A stretch of DNA of 64,000 bases from Nitrososphaeria archaeon (GCA_963752255.1 CAVVXT010000003.1:32001-96000); one strand, 5' to 3'; positions 50,508 to 58,730 are shown, counted from the first letter of the stretch. Numbers and translations are program-made. Notes: generated by a model not told the origin, from the sequence alone.

Positions 50508-51536
50508 ATGTCTATTCGTGTTGCTGTATACGGCCTTGGTCCTATAGGTATCCTAATAGCTAAAGAAACCCTAAAGAAAAAGGATTTGAATCTTGTTGCA
50601 GCGTTTGACATTGACCCCTTGAAAATTGGCAAAGATTTAGGAGACATCCTTGGAATAGATGAGAAAATAGGAATATACGTTGATGATGATGCTAACGCGT
50701 TGCAGACTCTAAAGAACAGCGGCGTAAAGGTAGTTTTACATTCGACCTCAACCTACTTAGATAAAAATTATGCCCAGATCGTCAAATGTATTGAAGCAGG
50801 TGCAGATGTTATTTCAACTTCTGAAACGCTTTCAAACCCGTGGTTTCGCTACCCAGAGCTTGCGACACTTCTTGACGAGCTAGCTAAAAAATATTGTACT
50901 TCTATAATCGGAACTGGAATCAACCCTGGGTTCATCTTTGATACTCTTCCCATAGTCATGACTTCTGTGTGCACCGTAGTCAACAGCATTCACGTCACAA
51001 GGTCTCTTGACGCTTCAAAAAGAAGATATTCATTCCAAAAGAAATATGGTTTAGGTTTAAAAGTTGACGACTTCAAAGATAAAATAGAAAAAGGAGAATT
51101 AACAGCTCACACAGGTTATAGTGAATCGATCAATTTGATAGCTAACGCGTTAGGTGTCAACCTAGATAAAATCATTGAAGGACAAGAACCCCTGATCGCT
51201 AAGAAGGATATGAAGACACAATTTTTCAATATCAGAGAAGGTCAAGTTTCCGGTATACACGGTTTTGGAGTTGGATTCCTGAAGGGAGGGGAATTTATCA
51301 AAATCGAACTTTCTGCTGAAGTAGACGGGATTGAATTTGAAGAAGTTACAATTGAAGGTACTCCACCTATAAAATGGAGGAGCTCTGGAATCTCTGGTGA
51401 TATCGCCACGGCAGCCATGGTAATAAACATGATTCCAAAGATACTCACTTCAAAACCTGGCTTACGCCGTATGTGCGATATTCCGTACCCATCTGCCTTT
51501 TTGAGTTTGGAAAATTCAATTAGAGAAGAGGGTTGA
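50508..51536 (+). CDS. 2,4-diaminopentanoate dehydrogenase/native amine dehydrogenase-like (DapB-related)
   Basis: GLGPIG, GKDLG, STSE, GTGINPGF.FD, GDIATAA..IN. Confidence 0.85.
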   Translation: MSIRVAVYGLGPIGILIAKETLKKKDLNLVAAFDIDPLKIGKDLGDILGIDEKIGIYVDDDANALQTLKNSGVKVVLHSTSTYLDKNYAQIVKCIEAGADVISTSETLSNPWFRYPELATLLDELAKKYCTSIIGTGINPGFIFDTLPIVMTSVCTVVNSIHVTRSLDASKRRYSFQKKYGLGLKVDDFKDKIEKGELTAHTGYSESINLIANALGVNLDKIIEGQEPLIAKKDMKTQFFNIREGQVSGIHGFGVGFLKGGEFIKIELSAEVDGIEFEEVTIEGTPPIKWRSSGISGDIATAAMVINMIPKILTSKPGLRRMCDIPYPSAFLSLENSIREEG

Positions 51537-52843
51537 CCTGCTTGAACTACATTAGCAAAACAGCCCTATCAAGGAATCTATTCGAAAAGGCAAAAAAATA
51601 TATTCCTGGTGGATCAACTTATGCAATTAGATACTTCGAACCCTATCCTTTCTACGTTAAAAGAGCGCTGGGGAGTAGAATTTGGGATGTCGACGATAAC
51701 GAATACATAGACTTTTGGACTGTTCATTTCGCAGCGATTTTTGGACACGGTTATGCACCTGTCATGTCGGCTGTCAAGGAACAACTTGATTTAGGTGCTC
51801 ACTTTGGATGGTGCAATGAATGGGAAGTGAAATGGGCTGAAAAAGTATGTGGCTGGTTCAAAGCTGACAAAGTAAAACCAGCTAACAGCGGTACAGAATC
51901 CAACATGTACGCTATTAGGCTAGCAAGAGCTTACACGGGAAAGAAGAAGGTTGGTAAGATGGAAGGAGGATGGCATGGGGGATTCGATGGACTAAATAGA
52001 GCTGTTAATTACCCTTACAACCTACCTTCCAATCTGAATCCAACTTCAACAGAAGACATAATACCTCTACCTTTTAACGATCTTGACGGTTTAATCAAGA
52101 AGGTTTCCCAAGAGGAATTGGCTTGCATAACAGTTGAACCGATGTTAGGTTCAGCTGGAGCTATTCCTGCTAAAAAAGAGTTTCTCAAGGGTTTAAGAGA
52201 ATTATGTGATAAAAAGAACATCGTACTCATTTTTGACGAAGTTATTACAGGATTCCGTCATCCAGGTGGGCTCCAACAGCACTTTGGCGTAAAACCCGAT
52301 TTGACAACAATGGGTAAGACAGTAGGTGGGCAATATTTTGCTGGAGCCGGAGGCATCTGTGGACGATCAGAAATAATGGATTTGCTTGACCAAACTCGAA
52401 GGAAGGATTTTTGGGATCGTCCAGCTCATGGAGGAACATATGTTGGTAACGCGGTAACAATGAGAGCAGGATATGTCACGATATCGGAGCTTGAAAGACA
52501 AAGAGACCAAGTATACAAACATATAGATTCACTAGGCGAATATGGTAGAAAAAGATTCACCGAAATCATGGAAGAAAACAGATTTGAAGCTTACATCACC
52601 GGTATATGCTCGATGTTTGGGCTTCATTTTACGAAAGAAATTCCAATAAACGGTGAAACAGCAGAAAAGACAAAGGATAGAAAATTATGTAGCGATCTAT
52701 TTGCCTATTTGATACAAAATGGTATCGCATATCTGACGCCGAAATCACCACATTTTGCTGTTTCAAACGCTCATAAAAAAGAAGATTTAGATTATTTATC
52801 GACTAAAGTTGAAGAATTCATAAAAAGCAAGAAGGAGCGGTAA
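51533..52843 (+). CDS. Class III PLP aminotransferase (GSA-aminomutase-like)
   Basis: DVDDNEYID, NSGTE, GGWHG, FDEVITGFR, MGK, HGGTY.GN. Confidence 0.9.
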   Translation: MTCLNYISKTALSRNLFEKAKKYIPGGSTYAIRYFEPYPFYVKRALGSRIWDVDDNEYIDFWTVHFAAIFGHGYAPVMSAVKEQLDLGAHFGWCNEWEVKWAEKVCGWFKADKVKPANSGTESNMYAIRLARAYTGKKKVGKMEGGWHGGFDGLNRAVNYPYNLPSNLNPTSTEDIIPLPFNDLDGLIKKVSQEELACITVEPMLGSAGAIPAKKEFLKGLRELCDKKNIVLIFDEVITGFRHPGGLQQHFGVKPDLTTMGKTVGGQYFAGAGGICGRSEIMDLLDQTRRKDFWDRPAHGGTYVGNAVTMRAGYVTISELERQRDQVYKHIDSLGEYGRKRFTEIMEENRFEAYITGICSMFGLHFTKEIPINGETAEKTKDRKLCSDLFAYLIQNGIAYLTPKSPHFAVSNAHKKEDLDYLSTKVEEFIKSKKER

Positions 52844-52943: not shown

Positions 52944-53583
52944 TTGTCAGAAGTTGGAGAACAGATTATAAAAGCTATAAAAGAACTTGTAGAACAAAAA
53001 ATATTGTTCGCTAAGGGTGGGAACCTGAGTGCGAGATATGATAATGACCAAGTGATTGTAACCTCGTCTGGAAAAGACTACTCTACAGTCAAAGCAGATG
53101 ACCTGGTCATAACAGATTATGAGGGTAAGATAGTTAAAGGCGAAAAGAAACCTTCTTCAGAACTGCCGCTGCACTTAGCAATATACAAACGTAGGCCAGA
53201 TGTCCAATCAATTATACATACACACGCAATATGGCCTTACATTCTTTCGGTATGCCATCGCAATCTACCTGCCGTCTCAGATGAATTTACGATCCTATTA
53301 GGTGGCGAAGATAAAAGTCTCAGAATACAAATTCCCTGGAACAAAAAACTTGGGAGATAGTGTGGCAGATGTCTTAGGTATGAATAACGCTGCCTTGATA
53401 GCAAACCACGGCTGCGTGACAGTTGGTAGAAGTGTAGAAGAAGCATTAGAGAATATGGTGGTCTTGGCAAATTTCTCAAAGATTTATGTGCTCGGAAGCA
53501 TCTTCGGCAAAGTCTACCCACTGCCTGATTGGGCGATTGAAAAGGAAAAAGAACTCTATAAAAAAATGTTCGGTCAGAAATAG
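52944..53583 (+). CDS. Class II (FucA-type) Zn aldolase (split by +1 nt near 53308)
   Basis: GGNLS, SG, KPSSE..LH, IIHTH, ANHG. Removing one A gives LLGGEIKVSEYKFPGT. Confidence 0.9.
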
Positions 53584-53870
53584 ACCTTCCCTATCCCTTT
53601 TTATGTATCCACTCTTATTGTTTCCTTCATTTGTCAATACAATCTTCTAACATCGAGAGTAAACTGATTGCCGCATCCAAAATTCAAAAAAAGAATTCAA
53701 AGATGTGTAAATGTCTGGTAAGTAAATCCTTTGGAAGTTTCGTAATATTAAATGTTCTATCAAATTGTTCGCTAGATAAGATCTTATCGTTTCAATCACT
53801 GAGCAAGATTTTGTTATTAAGAAAGGGTTAACAACAAGAATTTTTTAAAAAGCTCTTCTTTAGACGATCT

Positions 53871-55319
53871 TCAAAGAATTTCAGCTAAAGATTTGATAAC
53901 GGCCTTGTATTCTTCAGCAAGCTTATCGTAGACTGCTTTTTTCTCAAGGTTTGGCTTAAATTTTGCCTTGAACTTCACCGATTCGCGTACTAATTGGTTT
54001 AAGTCACATCCTTTAGTTCCCCATACTGCTAAAATAGCTGATCCAAGAGCGGAATCCGGTTCTTCAACGGCTTTTGTCTCTTTTCCTGTAGCGTCGGCTA
54101 TTATCTGCATTAAAAGTGTATTCTTAGAAGCGCCACCACAAATTCTTAAATCATAAAAGTTTGTTTCAGTTACTTCTTCAACTGCCGAAAGCATTGTTCT
54201 CAAGGTTATAGTACTGCCCTCTAAAAGGCTTCTAAATATGTGTCCAGGAGTCATGTTTTTTTCGTTCATACCTATCAAGAAACCTTTAACGTTAGGATAA
54301 GTCTTCGGTACTCTTACACCAAACCATTCTGTGCAGGCCATCAGGTTATCCGACCCTGCAGGAACATTTTTTGCTAATTCCGTTAACTTATCCAGATTTG
54401 TTTTCAGAAGCCTACTCATCGAATCAAATGCTGCTGAGCCTGCGTTAGTGAATCCGCCTGCGAGATACGTGTTGTTAACATAAGTTTTATAATAAAATCT
54501 TCCATTTTCGTCAGGTATAATTTTATCAACGATCGCATGAAGTGTTAAAGACGTTCCAATAGTAACGTTAACCTGGCCAACATTTAAGGAACCTGAGGTT
54601 ACATCACCTGCACTCGCGTCTGTAATTCCATTTACGATGGGTGTGCCTTTAGGTAAACCCAACTCGGATGACTCTTCACTTGTATAGCCGACTATTGAGC
54701 CTATCTGTTTAACTTCCGGCATAATTTCTATCGGTATTTCCACATCTTGGTAAATATCCTTCAAATATCCCTCCCCTTGTAGTAAGGCATGCGCTTTACC
54801 CGCAGTATTTGAAGACGTCGCAGCTATTCCAGAAAGTTTATAGACTATGTAGTCGCTTTCATGTAGTACTTTGTATGTTTTGCTAAACCCATCAAAATTA
54901 TCCTTTAGCCAAATAAGCTTAGGTATAACAAGCTGAGGAAGTAGAGGCAAGAACTTTTCAAAATCTACGGCCGCCTGGCTTCTTAGTCTCAGCTGTTCCA
55001 CCCCATTTTTTCCTCGACTATCATTGTACATTATTAGATTATATAATTCATTTCCGTCTTTGTCGATTAAACCTATTGTTCCACTTGTCGCGTCAACACA
55101 AAGGCCGGAAACTTGATTCAATAACTTTAACTGAGTTAGAGCTTCCTTAGTTCTTTCCCATATCGCTTTCCCACTTCTTTCTGAAAACCCTTCTCTAGGT
55201 TGAATCAATAGGTCATACACGGGTACACTAGACTTCTCAAACACTTCTCCTTTTCTCGATATTATAGTAGCTTTTATATTCTTTGTACCAATGTCCAATC
55301 CAAGATAGAGTTCGGACAT
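53871..55319 (-). CDS. FGGY-family sugar kinase (xylulo/ribulokinase-like)
   Basis: GLDIGT, VDATSGT, MYNDSR, KLIWL, TD, TIGTS, GGAS, ALGSA. Confidence 0.92.
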   Translation of the reverse strand: MSELYLGLDIGTKNIKATIISRKGEVFEKSSVPVYDLLIQPREGFSERSGKAIWERTKEALTQLKLLNQVSGLCVDATSGTIGLIDKDGNELYNLIMYNDSRGKNGVEQLRLRSQAAVDFEKFLPLLPQLVIPKLIWLKDNFDGFSKTYKVLHESDYIVYKLSGIAATSSNTAGKAHALLQGEGYLKDIYQDVEIPIEIMPEVKQIGSIVGYTSEESSELGLPKGTPIVNGITDASAGDVTSGSLNVGQVNVTIGTSLTLHAIVDKIIPDENGRFYYKTYVNNTYLAGGFTNAGSAAFDSMSRLLKTNLDKLTELAKNVPAGSDNLMACTEWFGVRVPKTYPNVKGFLIGMNEKNMTPGHIFRSLLEGSTITLRTMLSAVEEVTETNFYDLRICGGASKNTLLMQIIADATGKETKAVEEPDSALGSAILAVWGTKGCDLNQLVRESVKFKAKFKPNLEKKAVYDKLAEEYKAVIKSLAEIL

Positions 55320-55439
55320 TAAAGAAGCACCTTAAAAAAAGGAGTTTACGACCATATTTAAGCTTTATAGGAGGCTCTGTGTGAATAAAGAAAATAAAAA
55401 TATATATAAGGATAGAACAAGCTTTCTTGGCGTATTTCG
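55320..55439. promoter_or_regulatory. Divergent promoter region between kinase and RubisCO
   Basis: A-rich BRE plus TATATATAA at 55401-55409 (+); TTAAATA at 55355-55361 and SD-like AAGGTG on the - strand. Confidence 0.6.
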
Positions 55440-56735
55440 ATGTCTGAAGAGAATTTGAATGTTTTTACAGCGGTCACCGAGGAAGTCGACCCTGAAAAGA
55501 ATATTGTTGCGACCTATTACGTTGAAGGAAGAGACATTTCAATCGATGAGGCAGGCGTGAAGATTGCTGCTGAAGAATCTATTGGTACATGGACACAAGT
55601 TTCAACTGCAACAGAATGGATCATTAAGAATCTTCCAGCAAAAGTATTTGAACACAAGATAGAGGATAAAAACACAGGAATAATAAAGATAGCTTACCCA
55701 AATATCTTGTTTGATTTTGAGACCGGAGGTATACCTAATATGCTGAGCATCGTTGCAGGCAACCTTTTTGGTTCAGGTTCACTTCAAAACGTTAGACTCG
55801 TAGATCTTCAACTTCCCAAGGAAGCCACGCTATCTTTTAAAGGTCCGAAATTCGGAATCGAAAATATTAGAAAGATCGTAGGCACCGTCGAAAGCAGAAG
55901 ACCACATCTTGGAACGATTATCAAACCTAAGGTAGGCCTTAGTCCAAAAGAAACAGCTAAGGTGGCATACGAAGCCGCAATAGGAGGAGTGGACTTTATC
56001 AAGGACGATGAAACGTTAACGAATCAAAAGTTCTGTCCACTGGCTGATAGAGTAAGCAATGTTATGGAGGCGCTTGATAAAGTTAAGTCTGAGACAGGTA
56101 GAACTATTCTCTACTCTCCTGATATAACCACAGAGACTTATAGAATGCGTGATCTGGCTCAGGTTGCGCTGGATCATGGAGCCAATGCTCTTATGGTAGA
56201 CTTCCTACCATCCGGTTTCTCAGCTGTAAGACTGCTTGCTGAGGATCCTTCTATAAAAGTGCCTATACACGTGCACAGATGTATGCATGCTGCGATGACT
56301 AGAAATCCTAAACATGGCATCACCATGATGGTGCTTGCGAAGCTTGTGCGTTTAGCTGGAGGCGATCAACTACACACCGGAACTGTTGCCGGAAAGATGG
56401 GTGGAAAAGAGAAAAAGGTCGAGGAACTAATTGCAATGAACAATTTCTTGAAAGGGAAATTCTATGGTTTGAAGACGACGTTCCCTGTTGCTTCAGGGGG
56501 GGTTCATCCATCCGTTGTTCCGATAAACGTTCTCACACTTGGTAAAGATATTGTGATCCAAGCAGGAGGAGGAATTCATGGCCATCCAAATGGCACTAGG
56601 GCAGGCGCAGTTGCAATGAGGGATGCTATAGATGCAGTGATGAAGGGTATTCCTCTAGAAGAATACGCGAAAGATCACAAGGAACTAGACGTAGCTATAC
56701 AGCATTGGGGAATGAAGTACGTCACAGAAGAATAG
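55440..56735 (+). CDS. rbcL: Form III ribulose-1,5-bisphosphate carboxylase
   Basis: All key motifs: AAE..GTW, GNLFG, IKPK, KDDE, HVHR, LHTGT, GKM (loop-6 Lys), SGG, GGG. Confidence 0.92.
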   Translation: MSEENLNVFTAVTEEVDPEKNIVATYYVEGRDISIDEAGVKIAAEESIGTWTQVSTATEWIIKNLPAKVFEHKIEDKNTGIIKIAYPNILFDFETGGIPNMLSIVAGNLFGSGSLQNVRLVDLQLPKEATLSFKGPKFGIENIRKIVGTVESRRPHLGTIIKPKVGLSPKETAKVAYEAAIGGVDFIKDDETLTNQKFCPLADRVSNVMEALDKVKSETGRTILYSPDITTETYRMRDLAQVALDHGANALMVDFLPSGFSAVRLLAEDPSIKVPIHVHRCMHAAMTRNPKHGITMMVLAKLVRLAGGDQLHTGTVAGKMGGKEKKVEELIAMNNFLKGKFYGLKTTFPVASGGVHPSVVPINVLTLGKDIVIQAGGGIHGHPNGTRAGAVAMRDAIDAVMKGIPLEEYAKDHKELDVAIQHWGMKYVTEE

Positions 56736-56785
56736 AATATCCTATCATTTTCAAAACCTTATAAATAATCAAACTTACTAATTGA

Positions 56786-57850
56786 GTGATACTAATGGCA
56801 GACTATTTCGGTAAGATCAATTCAAATGAACTTTACAATTTCTGTGTTGACATCTTTTTGAAGGCTGGTGTTCCAAAAGAAACCGCAGAAATTGTTTCTG
56901 AACACTTGGTCACAGCCAATCTAAGAGGTGTTGATTCGCATGGCGCCTTTGTAAGGATTCCCCACTACCTAACAGCTCTACGTGAGGGGATAATTAATCC
57001 CAGACCTTCAATCAGATCCGTCAAAGACACACCAAGTGTTGCATTAATAGATGGAGACAAAGGTTTTGGACCTGTAGTAGCCATGAAGGCGACGGAAATG
57101 GCTATTAGCAAAGCTAAGAGCTCTGGCATCTGTTTTGTTGGTACAAAGAACATGAGCCACGTAGGGATGTTGGCACGATATTCTCTTAAAATTGTCGAAA
57201 AAATGATGATCGGAATGGCTGCTACAAATTCGCCCCCATTAGTAGTTCCATGGGGTGGAACCAAACCTGTCCTTGGAACAAACCCTTTTACCATCGGTTT
57301 TCCAATAGACGATAAATCTTCGATAATTGTTGATATGGCTACAAGCACTGTTGCTGCAGGAAAGATAGCTGTATTCGCCTCTAAAGGAGAAAAAATTCCT
57401 GAGGGATGGGCTCTCGATAAATACGGTAACCCTACAACAGATCCTAGAGTTTTTTTGGATAAAGGTATTCTCCTCCCATTCGGAGGGTACAAAGGTTATG
57501 GGCTGTCTCTTAGTGTAGAACTTTTTGCCGGACTGCTAACAGGATCACCTTTTAGTTCACATATACAAAGGGGCTGGGCAACACAAGGGGGTTTCGTTGT
57601 TCAAGCGATAAACATAGATTCCTTCAGAGAGTACGCTGACTATAAAAAAGATATTCTGGAGCTGGTTCAGACGATTAAGTCAACCCCACCTGCAGAAGGA
57701 TTCAAAGAAGTCCTATTACCCGGAGAACCTGAACAAAGAGAATATGAGAGGAGGAAAAAAGAGGGTGTGCCTGTCTACAAAGATTCCTGGGAAAACATTG
57801 CAAAAGTGTCGAAGGATATGCAGATCAACCTTCCGAACCTCATAAAATAG
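56786..57850 (+). CDS. Ldh_2 family dehydrogenase
   Basis: GVDSHG, SHVG, GTNP, DMAT, GGYKGYGL, LPGE. Confidence 0.93.
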   Translation: MILMADYFGKINSNELYNFCVDIFLKAGVPKETAEIVSEHLVTANLRGVDSHGAFVRIPHYLTALREGIINPRPSIRSVKDTPSVALIDGDKGFGPVVAMKATEMAISKAKSSGICFVGTKNMSHVGMLARYSLKIVEKMMIGMAATNSPPLVVPWGGTKPVLGTNPFTIGFPIDDKSSIIVDMATSTVAAGKIAVFASKGEKIPEGWALDKYGNPTTDPRVFLDKGILLPFGGYKGYGLSLSVELFAGLLTGSPFSSHIQRGWATQGGFVVQAINIDSFREYADYKKDILELVQTIKSTPPAEGFKEVLLPGEPEQREYERRKKEGVPVYKDSWENIAKVSKDMQINLPNLIK

Positions 57851-57923
57851 GAATCCTGTCTAGTTTCTTTCAATATCAAATCTAAACTTTAAATAAATAT
57901 CGTATATAAGAAAAGCGATAGGT

Positions 57924-58730
57924 TTGAGGAAGAATAAATTAAGGGAGCTTATAAGAGAGGGTAAGCCTACAATCGGCACCAGAATACTCAGCTCTTGGCC
58001 CGGAATAGTTGAAATAATAGGTCAAACGGGAGTAATAGACTACTTCGAATTCATAGCCGAATATGCGCCTTGGACTCTGAACGATTTAGAAAACCTTGCT
58101 AGGGCAAGCGAATTATACGATATCAGTTCTATGATAAAACTTGACGCAATACCAAGAAGTTATATAGCTGCAAAAGCTTTGCAATCAGGTATCCAGAATT
58201 TTCTCTTTTCAGATATTAGGACAGTCAACGATGCAGAAGAGGCTGTAAAGTCTGTAAGATTAGAACCTAAGGGAATCATGGGGGTAGGTAACTTTAGGGT
58301 AGGTGGATATCTGTTTACAAACTGTACTGTCGCAGACTACAGAAAAGCGGCTGATGATTCAGTAATCGCATTTATGATAGAGAAAAAAAGTGCTGGAGAC
58401 CACTTAGAAGAAATCTTATCGGTTAAAGGATTAGATATGGTTCAATTTGGTCCGTGGGATTATGGCTTAAGCATGGGGCTATCCGGTGCACCTGGCACAC
58501 CATGGGCTTTAAATGAACCAAAAGTCAAAGAAGCTGAACTAAGAACAATACGGACTGCATTAAAGCTGGGCCTACGTCCTAGGGTAGAAATAGGTGATGT
58601 GAAAGATATAGAAAAGTACCTTGAACTCGGTGTCAAAGATTTTAGCCTGGGGACTGACATAAGAATATTGTTTGGTTTCTGGAAAGAGAATGGAGCTGAA
58701 TTAAAGAAGATTTTAAACAAAATGAAATAA
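57924..58730 (+). CDS. HpcH/HpaI-family metal-dependent aldolase (divergent)
   Basis: NKLRELI..GK..IG, AEY, MIEK, FGPWDY, GTD. Confidence 0.85.
   Translation: MRKNKLRELIREGKPTIGTRILSSWPGIVEIIGQTGVIDYFEFIAEYAPWTLNDLENLARASELYDISSMIKLDAIPRSYIAAKALQSGIQNFLFSDIRTVNDAEEAVKSVRLEPKGIMGVGNFRVGGYLFTNCTVADYRKAADDSVIAFMIEKKSAGDHLEEILSVKGLDMVQFGPWDYGLSMGLSGAPGTPWALNEPKVKEAELRTIRTALKLGLRPRVEIGDVKDIEKYLELGVKDFSLGTDIRILFGFWKENGAELKKILNKMK

Follow-up and report, generated by a model that had tools for sequence, protein, structure and literature searches.

The stretch of DNA analysed here, hereafter the window, comprises 64,000 nucleotides of a Nitrososphaeria archaeon (GCA_963752255.1 CAVVXT010000003.1:32001-96000), and coordinates given without a contig or locus label follow its own numbering. 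It lies on contig C3 of a 2.1-Mb genome, G000, which is in 19 contigs and 94.7% complete; contig and locus labels (C3, C10, C12 and C19, and the L-numbers) are our own. Two genes of the window are the subject of this work, one for the large subunit of a form III-type RubisCO and one for a kinase of the FGGY family, whose start codons face away from each other across a spacer of 120 bp. Open reading frame (ORF) calls and profile matches place both within a block of seven genes that spans 50.5-58.7 kb (Table 1). The profile searches agree with the families that a first-pass annotation of this DNA had assigned, namely, class II aldolase, FGGY kinase, RubisCO, Ldh_2 and HpcH, and the positions of the start codons confirm the divergent region that it had described as common to RubisCO and kinase. 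This spacer holds a putative TATA-like box, ATATATAA, about 40 nt 5' of the RubisCO start, which is also found in genomes G001 and G004, and a second A/T box that points at the kinase as a putative promoter element. Among the public sequencing runs, none from RNA was listed as containing this DNA.

Table 1. Genes and spacer of the seven-gene block, in window coordinates, with the profile matches on which each assignment rests.
Feature	Position	Strand	Evidence
2,4-diaminopentanoate-dehydrogenase-like oxidoreductase	50508..51536	+	PF19328 141 bits; NF040740 284 bits, below cut-off of 400
Class III (GSA-aminomutase-like) aminotransferase	51533..52843	+	PF00202 179 bits
FucA-type class II aldolase-family gene, interrupted in the assembly	52944..53583	+	two ORFs match PF00596 positions 1-120 and 122-183
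FGGY-family kinase, distinct clade	53871..55319	-	PF00370 102.1 bits, PF02782 72.9 bits; no equivalog cut-off reached
Divergent spacer, 120 bp, AT-rich, TATA-like box towards each gene	55320..55439	.	sequence inspection
RubisCO large subunit, form III-type ('clade A')	55440..56735	+	PF00016 266.9 bits, PF02788 95.9 bits
Ldh_2-family dehydrogenase (malate / L-lactate / sulfolactate type), 3' of RubisCO	56786..57850	+	PF02615 403 bits
HpcH/HpaI-family aldolase	57924..58730	+	PF03328 48.6 bits; TIGR02311 84 bits, below cut-off of 368.8

The closest solved structures to the window RubisCO are of form III (2cwx, 3e-101; 1geh, 2.6e-91), with form I structures at about 1e-65 and those of RubisCO-like proteins (RLPs, form IV) at about 1e-59. 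The carboxylase motifs are all present, namely, the E60/T65 block, N123, KPK, KDDE, HxHR..H, H..GK, SGG and GGG..GHP; on the spinach scale we take the residues concerned to be K175, K177, K201, D203, E204, H294, R295, H327, K334, S379, G381, G403, G404, E60, T65 and N123. The form IV signature, that is, the loss of several carboxylase residues, was looked for in the window protein, and none of them is lost. In a quick IQ-TREE phylogeny of 51 RubisCO-family sequences, this protein falls within a group of 26, which we refer to as clade A and in all members of which the same motifs are invariant, bearing out the earlier claim of a full set of carboxylase residues and hence of something other than a form IV RLP. 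A long branch divides clade A from clade B, which holds the RubisCO of the window's kinase-less relatives and is nearer to solved form III enzymes (6hun, 6e-147) than clade A is (3e-101); on TIGR03326, the NCBIfam form III equivalog, the window protein scores 445.3 bits, under the cut-off of 497.45. Because it has both domains, the full motif set and form III enzymes as its best structural matches, the protein is, to judge from its sequence, a genuine RubisCO that belongs to a divergent lineage of form III, and not an RLP.

The same genome carries a second RubisCO homologue (C10; L006, 1474-2728, near C10:171174-171983), with a same-genus counterpart in G001 (L122:1994-3226). This homologue is 43-47% identical to the window RubisCO, has KPN for KPK and SAAN for SGG, scores 308 bits on the form III model and adjoins a DMT-type transporter gene; by appearance it is an RLP-like paralogue.

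The kinase is likewise set apart within its own family. A search of 5.8 billion proteins returned 40 relatives at 39-100% identity, after which identity drops to 29%; by source name these come from Bathyarchaeia (also labelled Nitrososphaeria or Thermoprotei) and from Brock-, Hod-, Jord-, Frey- and Njord-type archaea. In an FGGY phylogeny of the kind that had been called for, built with 63 members and 15 paralogues, the clade is monophyletic, on a branch of 1.19 with an SH-aLRT support of 100. Compared with the 15 paralogues, it has its own invariant residues (R48, D76/T78/S79, Y98, E154, N230/T233/D239, H261 and Y276/Y277/K278), with R48, H261 and K278 among those absent from the paralogues, and its substrate motif reads DATS where the paralogues have T/S-x-Q-R. 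Family models score the window kinase below their cut-offs throughout: 225.5 of 380.25 bits for XylB (TIGR01312), 84.6 of 408.7 for TIGR01315, 66.9 of 470.9 for FucK and 46.3 of 527.95 for RhaB. The VDATSGT...MYND signature had been likened to that of D-ribulose-kinase-like FGGY members, with which the scores for TIGR01315 and XylB disagree. The nearest solved structures lie at only about 1e-28, and in the Protein Atlas the kinase matches solely generic FGGY and xylulose-kinase clusters.

What holds this kinase clade and RubisCO together is their position. A scan of one genome per prokaryotic species gave 29 kinase orthologue loci, one further bacterial match at 28% identity being left out. 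RubisCO lies within the fetched flanks at 16 of these loci, divergent from the kinase at eight, convergent at five and co-directional at three, the last with RubisCO directly upstream of the kinase and a gap of less than 75 bp, and the 16 loci come from Bathyarchaeia and from Asgard archaea of Njord and Hod type. When 347 flank ORFs from 28 loci (27 scan loci plus the window, with L030 omitted) were clustered all against all, RubisCO turned up at 16 of the loci and every other family at five or fewer. Among 56 metagenome kinase loci, some of whose contigs duplicate the scanned genomes, a RubisCO-type gene neighbours the kinase at 15, an RLP gene at four and a fragment at one. RubisCO is the only widely conserved neighbour of the kinase clade.

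The phyletic distribution of the two genes points the same way. A PF00016 match is found in all 29 kinase genomes, in the case of G080 as a partial bona fide-scoring RubisCO match at a contig edge plus a weaker one. Of the window's 61 relatives, 27 have RubisCO and four have the kinase orthologue, all four being RubisCO-positive, and in genus g2 the sole kinase-bearing genome is also the sole RubisCO-bearing one. Seen from the side of RubisCO, 24 of the 26 clade-A sequences come from kinase-bearing genomes, the two exceptions being from genomes that are 76% and 79% complete. Njord-type kinases pair with a clade-B RubisCO, which shows that the kinase is tied to RubisCO in general rather than to clade A in particular. 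In G005, one of the two exceptions and the one member of the window's family in which a clade-A RubisCO occurs without the kinase, an ORF of 258 aa that matches nothing in NCBIfam (L120:7870-8646) lies between the aminotransferase and RubisCO genes and occupies the slot of the aldolase and kinase.

Neither common descent nor chance would be expected to preserve the pairing so widely, which supports a functional tie between kinase and RubisCO, as the first-pass annotation had supposed. The lineages concerned are related and do not count as separate cases; nevertheless, without selection for linkage it is hard to account for three gene orders among several deep lineages. On these comparisons we regard the FGGY kinase as a distinct, uncharacterised clade that is a conserved partner of RubisCO.

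Known routes to the RubisCO substrate, ribulose 1,5-bisphosphate (RuBP), were then considered. AMP phosphorylase, ribose 1,5-bisphosphate (R15P) isomerase and phosphoribulokinase (PRK) are all absent from the 64-kb window, as had been claimed. A search of the whole genome, which the first-pass annotation had advised, found AMP phosphorylase (C3:106529-108025; TIGR03327 650.9 bits, above the cut-off of 535), on the same contig about 18 kb downstream of rbcL and 10.5 kb beyond the window end. It also found a probable R15P isomerase, albeit in two pieces of 202.8 and 189.8 bits with a stop or frameshift between them (C12:202101-203011); the isomerase of a same-genus genome is intact, at 401 bits, and a second e2b2 paralogue in G000 scores 228 bits, below the cut-off of 314. 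PRK (PF00485) gave no match in G000 and, across the 29 kinase genomes, partial matches of at most 23.8 bits, none of them convincing. Subject to the break in the isomerase gene, the genome has a complete AMP pathway, which the earlier proposal had itself named as an explanation of the RubisCO that would refute the proposed route.

The genes of this pathway keep away from the kinase: AMP phosphorylase and R15P isomerase occur in none of 30 genome and 56 metagenome kinase loci, and in Hod- and Njord-type genomes they adjoin each other away from the kinase locus. An e2b2 match is present in all 29 kinase genomes, and three of these have no AMP phosphorylase match. G000 has six PfkB kinases, none of which matches a ribose 1-phosphate (R1P) kinase equivalog of the PfkB type, the best scores being 111.9 of 330 bits (NF053626) and 96.1 of 500 bits (NF041134). 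Among the 61 relatives no protein exceeds the R1P-kinase cut-off, a blank that says little, since the Thermococcales model is narrow and is also silent in 14 of 14 controls. Two MTAP-type nucleoside phosphorylases are encoded in G000, as is a hexulose-phosphate synthase-like (HPS-like) protein (C12:199666-200286; 185.9 bits, below the cut-off of 200), whose gene lies about 1.8 kb from that of R15P isomerase; therefore, ribulose 5-phosphate (Ru5P) would be available.

The remaining neighbours of the kinase differ from lineage to lineage. The locus of one Bathyarchaeia group includes a GH42 glycosidase, a second FGGY paralogue, a DeoC-type aldolase and a HAD hydrolase that weakly resembles phosphoglycolate phosphatase, and ABC permeases are found at three kinase loci, one from Bathyarchaeia and two of Hod type. 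The Hod-type gene order is RubisCO, kinase, a 2-hydroxyacid dehydrogenase resembling phosphoglycerate dehydrogenase (PGDH), an Ldh_1 dehydrogenase and an aminotransferase (operons L047:8680-14725 and L051:8653-12423; PGDH-like protein 333.5 bits, cut-off 454; Ldh_1 and a class I/II aminotransferase in L047), and the PGDH-like enzyme may take 3-phosphoglycerate (3-PGA) towards serine. Njord-type loci have a PTS-EIIA protein before the kinase and citrate synthase before RubisCO. A diaminopentanoate-dehydrogenase-like gene stands beside the module in G001, G004 and G005, and less than 8 kb from the kinase in a Brockarchaeota locus (L050); a class III aminotransferase gene stands beside it in the same three genomes and in L056/L127 and L050. 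None of these neighbours is general, and those of the Bathyarchaeia, Hod-type and Njord-type loci suggest sugar use upstream and 3-PGA use downstream. Outside the block, the window encodes ABC transporter parts, two epimerases, PolX and an M50 peptidase at 38-50 kb, for which no link to the module was seen.

Pairs of a kinase and a member of the RubisCO superfamily recur. A derived subclade of the kinase, found on metagenome contigs only (L159, L160, L162 and L166; 38% identity), stands next to a homologue of class II aldolases and to an RLP in which the Lys/Asp/Glu core is kept and R295, H327, K334 and S379 are lost (L159/L166). The layout of this three-gene module of kinase, aldolase and RLP resembles the kinase, MtnB-like and MtnW-like steps of methionine salvage. 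Separate FGGY paralogues, 25-27% identical to the window kinase, lie directly beside YkrW-type RLPs (2zvi, 3.6e-75) in a Bathyarchaeia relative (G036, L119:1904-3226) and in a Hod-type genome (L047:4212-5531 with L047:5626-7194); these RLPs (L119, and the second homologue in L047) have also lost carboxylase residues.

We propose that the RubisCO is a working form III carboxylase and forms, with its dedicated FGGY kinase, a conserved two-gene module. The kinase would phosphorylate a pentose monophosphate to a bisphosphate that RubisCO consumes, this bisphosphate being either RuBP directly, or R15P that would then be isomerised by the genome's R15P isomerase, and RubisCO would combine RuBP with CO2 to give two molecules of 3-PGA. 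Such a module would provide a sugar-derived entry to the RubisCO shunt, parallel to the route through AMP phosphorylase and R15P isomerase. We give an even chance to the reading that a pentose phosphate of sugar origin reaches RubisCO by way of the kinase, the grounds for it being a true RubisCO, a dedicated kinase clade, its nesting in RubisCO-positive genomes, the lack of a PRK, and the AMP route. We infer the substrate, regiochemistry and direction of flux of the kinase from the gene content, residues, pairing and phyletic nesting observed above.

Three activities could fill this role. First, the kinase may be a Ru5P 1-kinase, that is, a non-homologous analogue of PRK that makes RuBP, which is unlikely when taken singly; it would render the module self-sufficient, with Ru5P available and no PRK in the genome. 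Second, and to be held just as unlikely, it may be an R1P kinase whose R15P product is then isomerised to RuBP, in favour of which are the isomerase (e2b2) match in all kinase genomes, the lack of a known R1P kinase and the three kinase genomes with no AMP phosphorylase match. Third, a ribulose 1-phosphate (Ru1P) 5-kinase making RuBP, which we find distinctly doubtful, fits the aldolase neighbours and an XylB-like regiochemistry; on the evidence it has no advantage over the Ru5P 1-kinase, the R1P kinase or a plain pentulose kinase.

Several observations weigh against a kinase that feeds RubisCO in any of these ways. We know of no FGGY enzyme that acts on a phosphorylated sugar, and the best-scoring family, XylB, is that of xylulokinase, a free-sugar kinase. 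AMP phosphorylase and R15P isomerase exceed their cut-offs in 25 and 23 of the 29 kinase genomes, respectively, so that in most of them RubisCO needs no new supplier. Thirteen of the 29 loci have no RubisCO in their flanks, some of them with 10 kb on both sides (at at least four of the 13, the contig ends within about 1 kb of the kinase), and none of the Jord/Frey-type and Brock-type kinase loci has an adjacent RubisCO. Ordinary sugar catabolism would account for neighbours such as the GH42 glycosidase, ABC permeases, PTS-EIIA protein and second FGGY paralogues. The RLP-linked subclade retains the clade-specific kinase residues, and its kinase product can hardly be RuBP for carboxylation, which lowers our confidence in RuBP as the common product of the clade. 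Lastly, a search for longer kinase forms found no fused kinase-RubisCO protein, which counts as weak evidence.

Many of these points can be turned in favour of an ordinary pentulose kinase, which would phosphorylate free D-xylulose or D-ribulose at C5. Both genes would then serve pentose breakdown with no new chemistry, and RubisCO would be reached by the known steps from Ru5P through ribose 5-phosphate, phosphoribosyl pyrophosphate, AMP and R15P to RuBP. XylB gives the top family score, the FGGY substrates known to us are all unphosphorylated, sugar-use neighbours are common, most kinase genomes also carry the AMP route, and the pairing with an RLP in one subclade shows a product that is not bound to RuBP. 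However, the window kinase falls far short of the XylB cut-off, the DATS motif departs from the T/S-x-Q-R of the paralogues, and the kinase was found solely in RubisCO-bearing genomes (29/29). Moreover, a tight module in three layouts across phyla would be unexpected if four or five unlinked steps separated the two enzymes. We therefore consider a pentulose kinase somewhat unlikely, though it is the foremost competitor to the proposed supply of RubisCO by a sugar-phosphate kinase.

A further alternative, the one put forward in the first-pass annotation, involves the aldolases of the block and is a special case of the Ru1P option. The HpcH aldolase would release glycolaldehyde, which the class II aldolase would join with dihydroxyacetone phosphate (DHAP) into Ru1P; the FGGY kinase, acting at C5, would convert this into RuBP for RubisCO, in what would be a PRK-independent, C2-assimilating path. 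The FucA-type aldolase was found in the family and flanking position described, although not as a single ORF: in this assembly it falls into two frames, one of 138 aa and one of 93 aa, that overlap. When aligned with its G001 and G008 orthologues, both of which are intact, the gene shows one extra G near 53308-53310, and contigs from all three public runs that cover the site (X1, X2 and X3; two studies; 99% likeness) are without one base at 53308. Because the extra base is missing in all three, the break is probably an assembly error or a strain-private change, and the gene would be intact in the three runs, a point in favour of the glycolaldehyde path. Of the genes examined in G000, four are split, namely, those of the aldolase, R15P isomerase and the second RubisCO homologue, and a PfkB gene (C19:419236-420091), and the same-genus orthologues of the first three are intact; the splits are probable indel assembly errors, the aldolase being the one compared with the runs. 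In run X1, one contig joins 52927 to 53806 and skips 878 bp with the aldolase gene, a join that is unproven, its shorter side having 27 letters, and that may be an aldolase-less variant or an artefact.

The intact aldolase orthologues score below the equivalog cut-offs of FucA (138-154 of 264 bits), Ru1P aldolase (131-158 of 300), L-Ru5P epimerase (137-140 of 251) and MtnB (84-85 of 137). For the glycolaldehyde path one can cite that the aldolase adjoins the kinase-RubisCO pair in G000, G001 and G008/L126 and lies farther off in L057, and that the top NCBIfam match of the G008 protein is a haloarchaeal Ru1P aldolase, at 158 of 300 bits. A FucA-type enzyme is described as making Ru1P from DHAP and glycolaldehyde (PMC9700705). 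Against it, close orthologues (at least 70% identity) are found in only three of the 29 kinase genomes, G001, G004 and G008, all of the window's own family, that of G004 sitting on another contig and not in the module; in the other kinase genomes, class II aldolase homologues are 28-38% identical, and the aldolase is absent from all Asgard RubisCO-linked loci. Linkage of Ldh_2 to RubisCO is likewise confined to the window's family (G001, G005 and L126), as is that of HpcH, and the genome carries the AMP route. A kinase with a class II aldolase is, besides, classically a breakdown pair, as in FucK/FucA. Thus, of the synteny expected among rbcL, kinase and aldolase, the kinase-rbcL part holds at 16 of 29 loci, in three layouts and several lineages, and the aldolase part within one family; the path from glycolaldehyde and DHAP to RuBP, as formulated, is improbable.

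Least of all can we accept that kinase and RubisCO have no functional link, the RubisCO serving in AMP or nucleoside salvage only and the kinase lying next to it through descent or by accident. Nucleotide salvage is the usual interpretation of form III RubisCO from uncultured archaea, and the genome has AMP phosphorylase and a probable R15P isomerase, split in this assembly, but adjacency in three gene orders and several phylum-level lineages, the nesting of the kinase inside RubisCO-positive genomes, and a chance of about 1% per lineage that a single-copy gene in a 2-Mb genome lies less than 10 kb from a given gene make the absence of any link highly improbable.

The proposed supply of RubisCO by its partner kinase can be set beside four known systems. 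First, the archaeal pentose bisphosphate (AMP) pathway has the same RubisCO type and the same expected conversion of RuBP and CO2 into two molecules of 3-PGA, and G000 has its AMP phosphorylase and, split in the assembly, a probable R15P isomerase; here, in contrast, the neighbour is an FGGY kinase and not a PfkB-type R1P kinase, and the AMP-route genes are never in the kinase loci. Second, methanogens have PRK-RubisCO pairs (form III-a) that belong to the reductive hexulose-phosphate pathway. In these, too, a kinase gene stands beside that of a form III RubisCO, and the window's genome has an HPS-like gene, but the window kinase is not homologous to PRK (PF00485) and would be a Ru5P 1-kinase by hypothesis only. 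Third, FucK/FucA and RhaB/RhaD combine an FGGY ketose 1-kinase with a class II aldolase, two protein families whose genes also stand side by side within the window's family and the RLP-linked subclade; unlike in those systems, the window kinase matches the FucK and RhaB models poorly, and its wide partner is RubisCO and not an aldolase.

Fourth, haloarchaea have a non-carboxylating pentose bisphosphate pathway that, without RubisCO, leads from RuBP through Ru1P to DHAP and glycolaldehyde, according to Sato et al., 2022 (PMC9700705). The likeness consists of a homologue of the FucA-type Ru1P aldolase, which the window's family has next to the module, and of the HAD hydrolase that adjoins the module in other Bathyarchaeia, whereas the window has an intact RubisCO and meets none of the haloarchaeal equivalog cut-offs. 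The same article allows that archaeal sugar kinases still to be identified may include R1P kinases (Sato et al., 2022, PMC9700705). No published account that links an FGGY kinase with form III RubisCO came up in a search that left subscription journals and supplements outside. The kinase-RubisCO pairing looks like a modification of an established type of pathway, and there is a fair prospect that it involves an enzyme activity not described before.

That Bathyarchaeia and Asgard archaea alike have kept this kinase beside RubisCO suggests a second source of the RubisCO substrate. If the kinase makes RuBP, then archaea that are abundant in sediment and peat would drive RubisCO independently of PRK, inferences of carbon flux drawn from their genomes would change, and the FGGY family would gain a new type of reaction. 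If, specifically, it is a Ru5P 1-kinase, Bathyarchaeia and several Asgard lineages would have a complete kinase-RubisCO pair without PRK which, together with hexulose-phosphate synthase, would amount to a CO2-fixing shunt from pentose to 3-PGA or to a cycle of the reductive hexulose-phosphate type.

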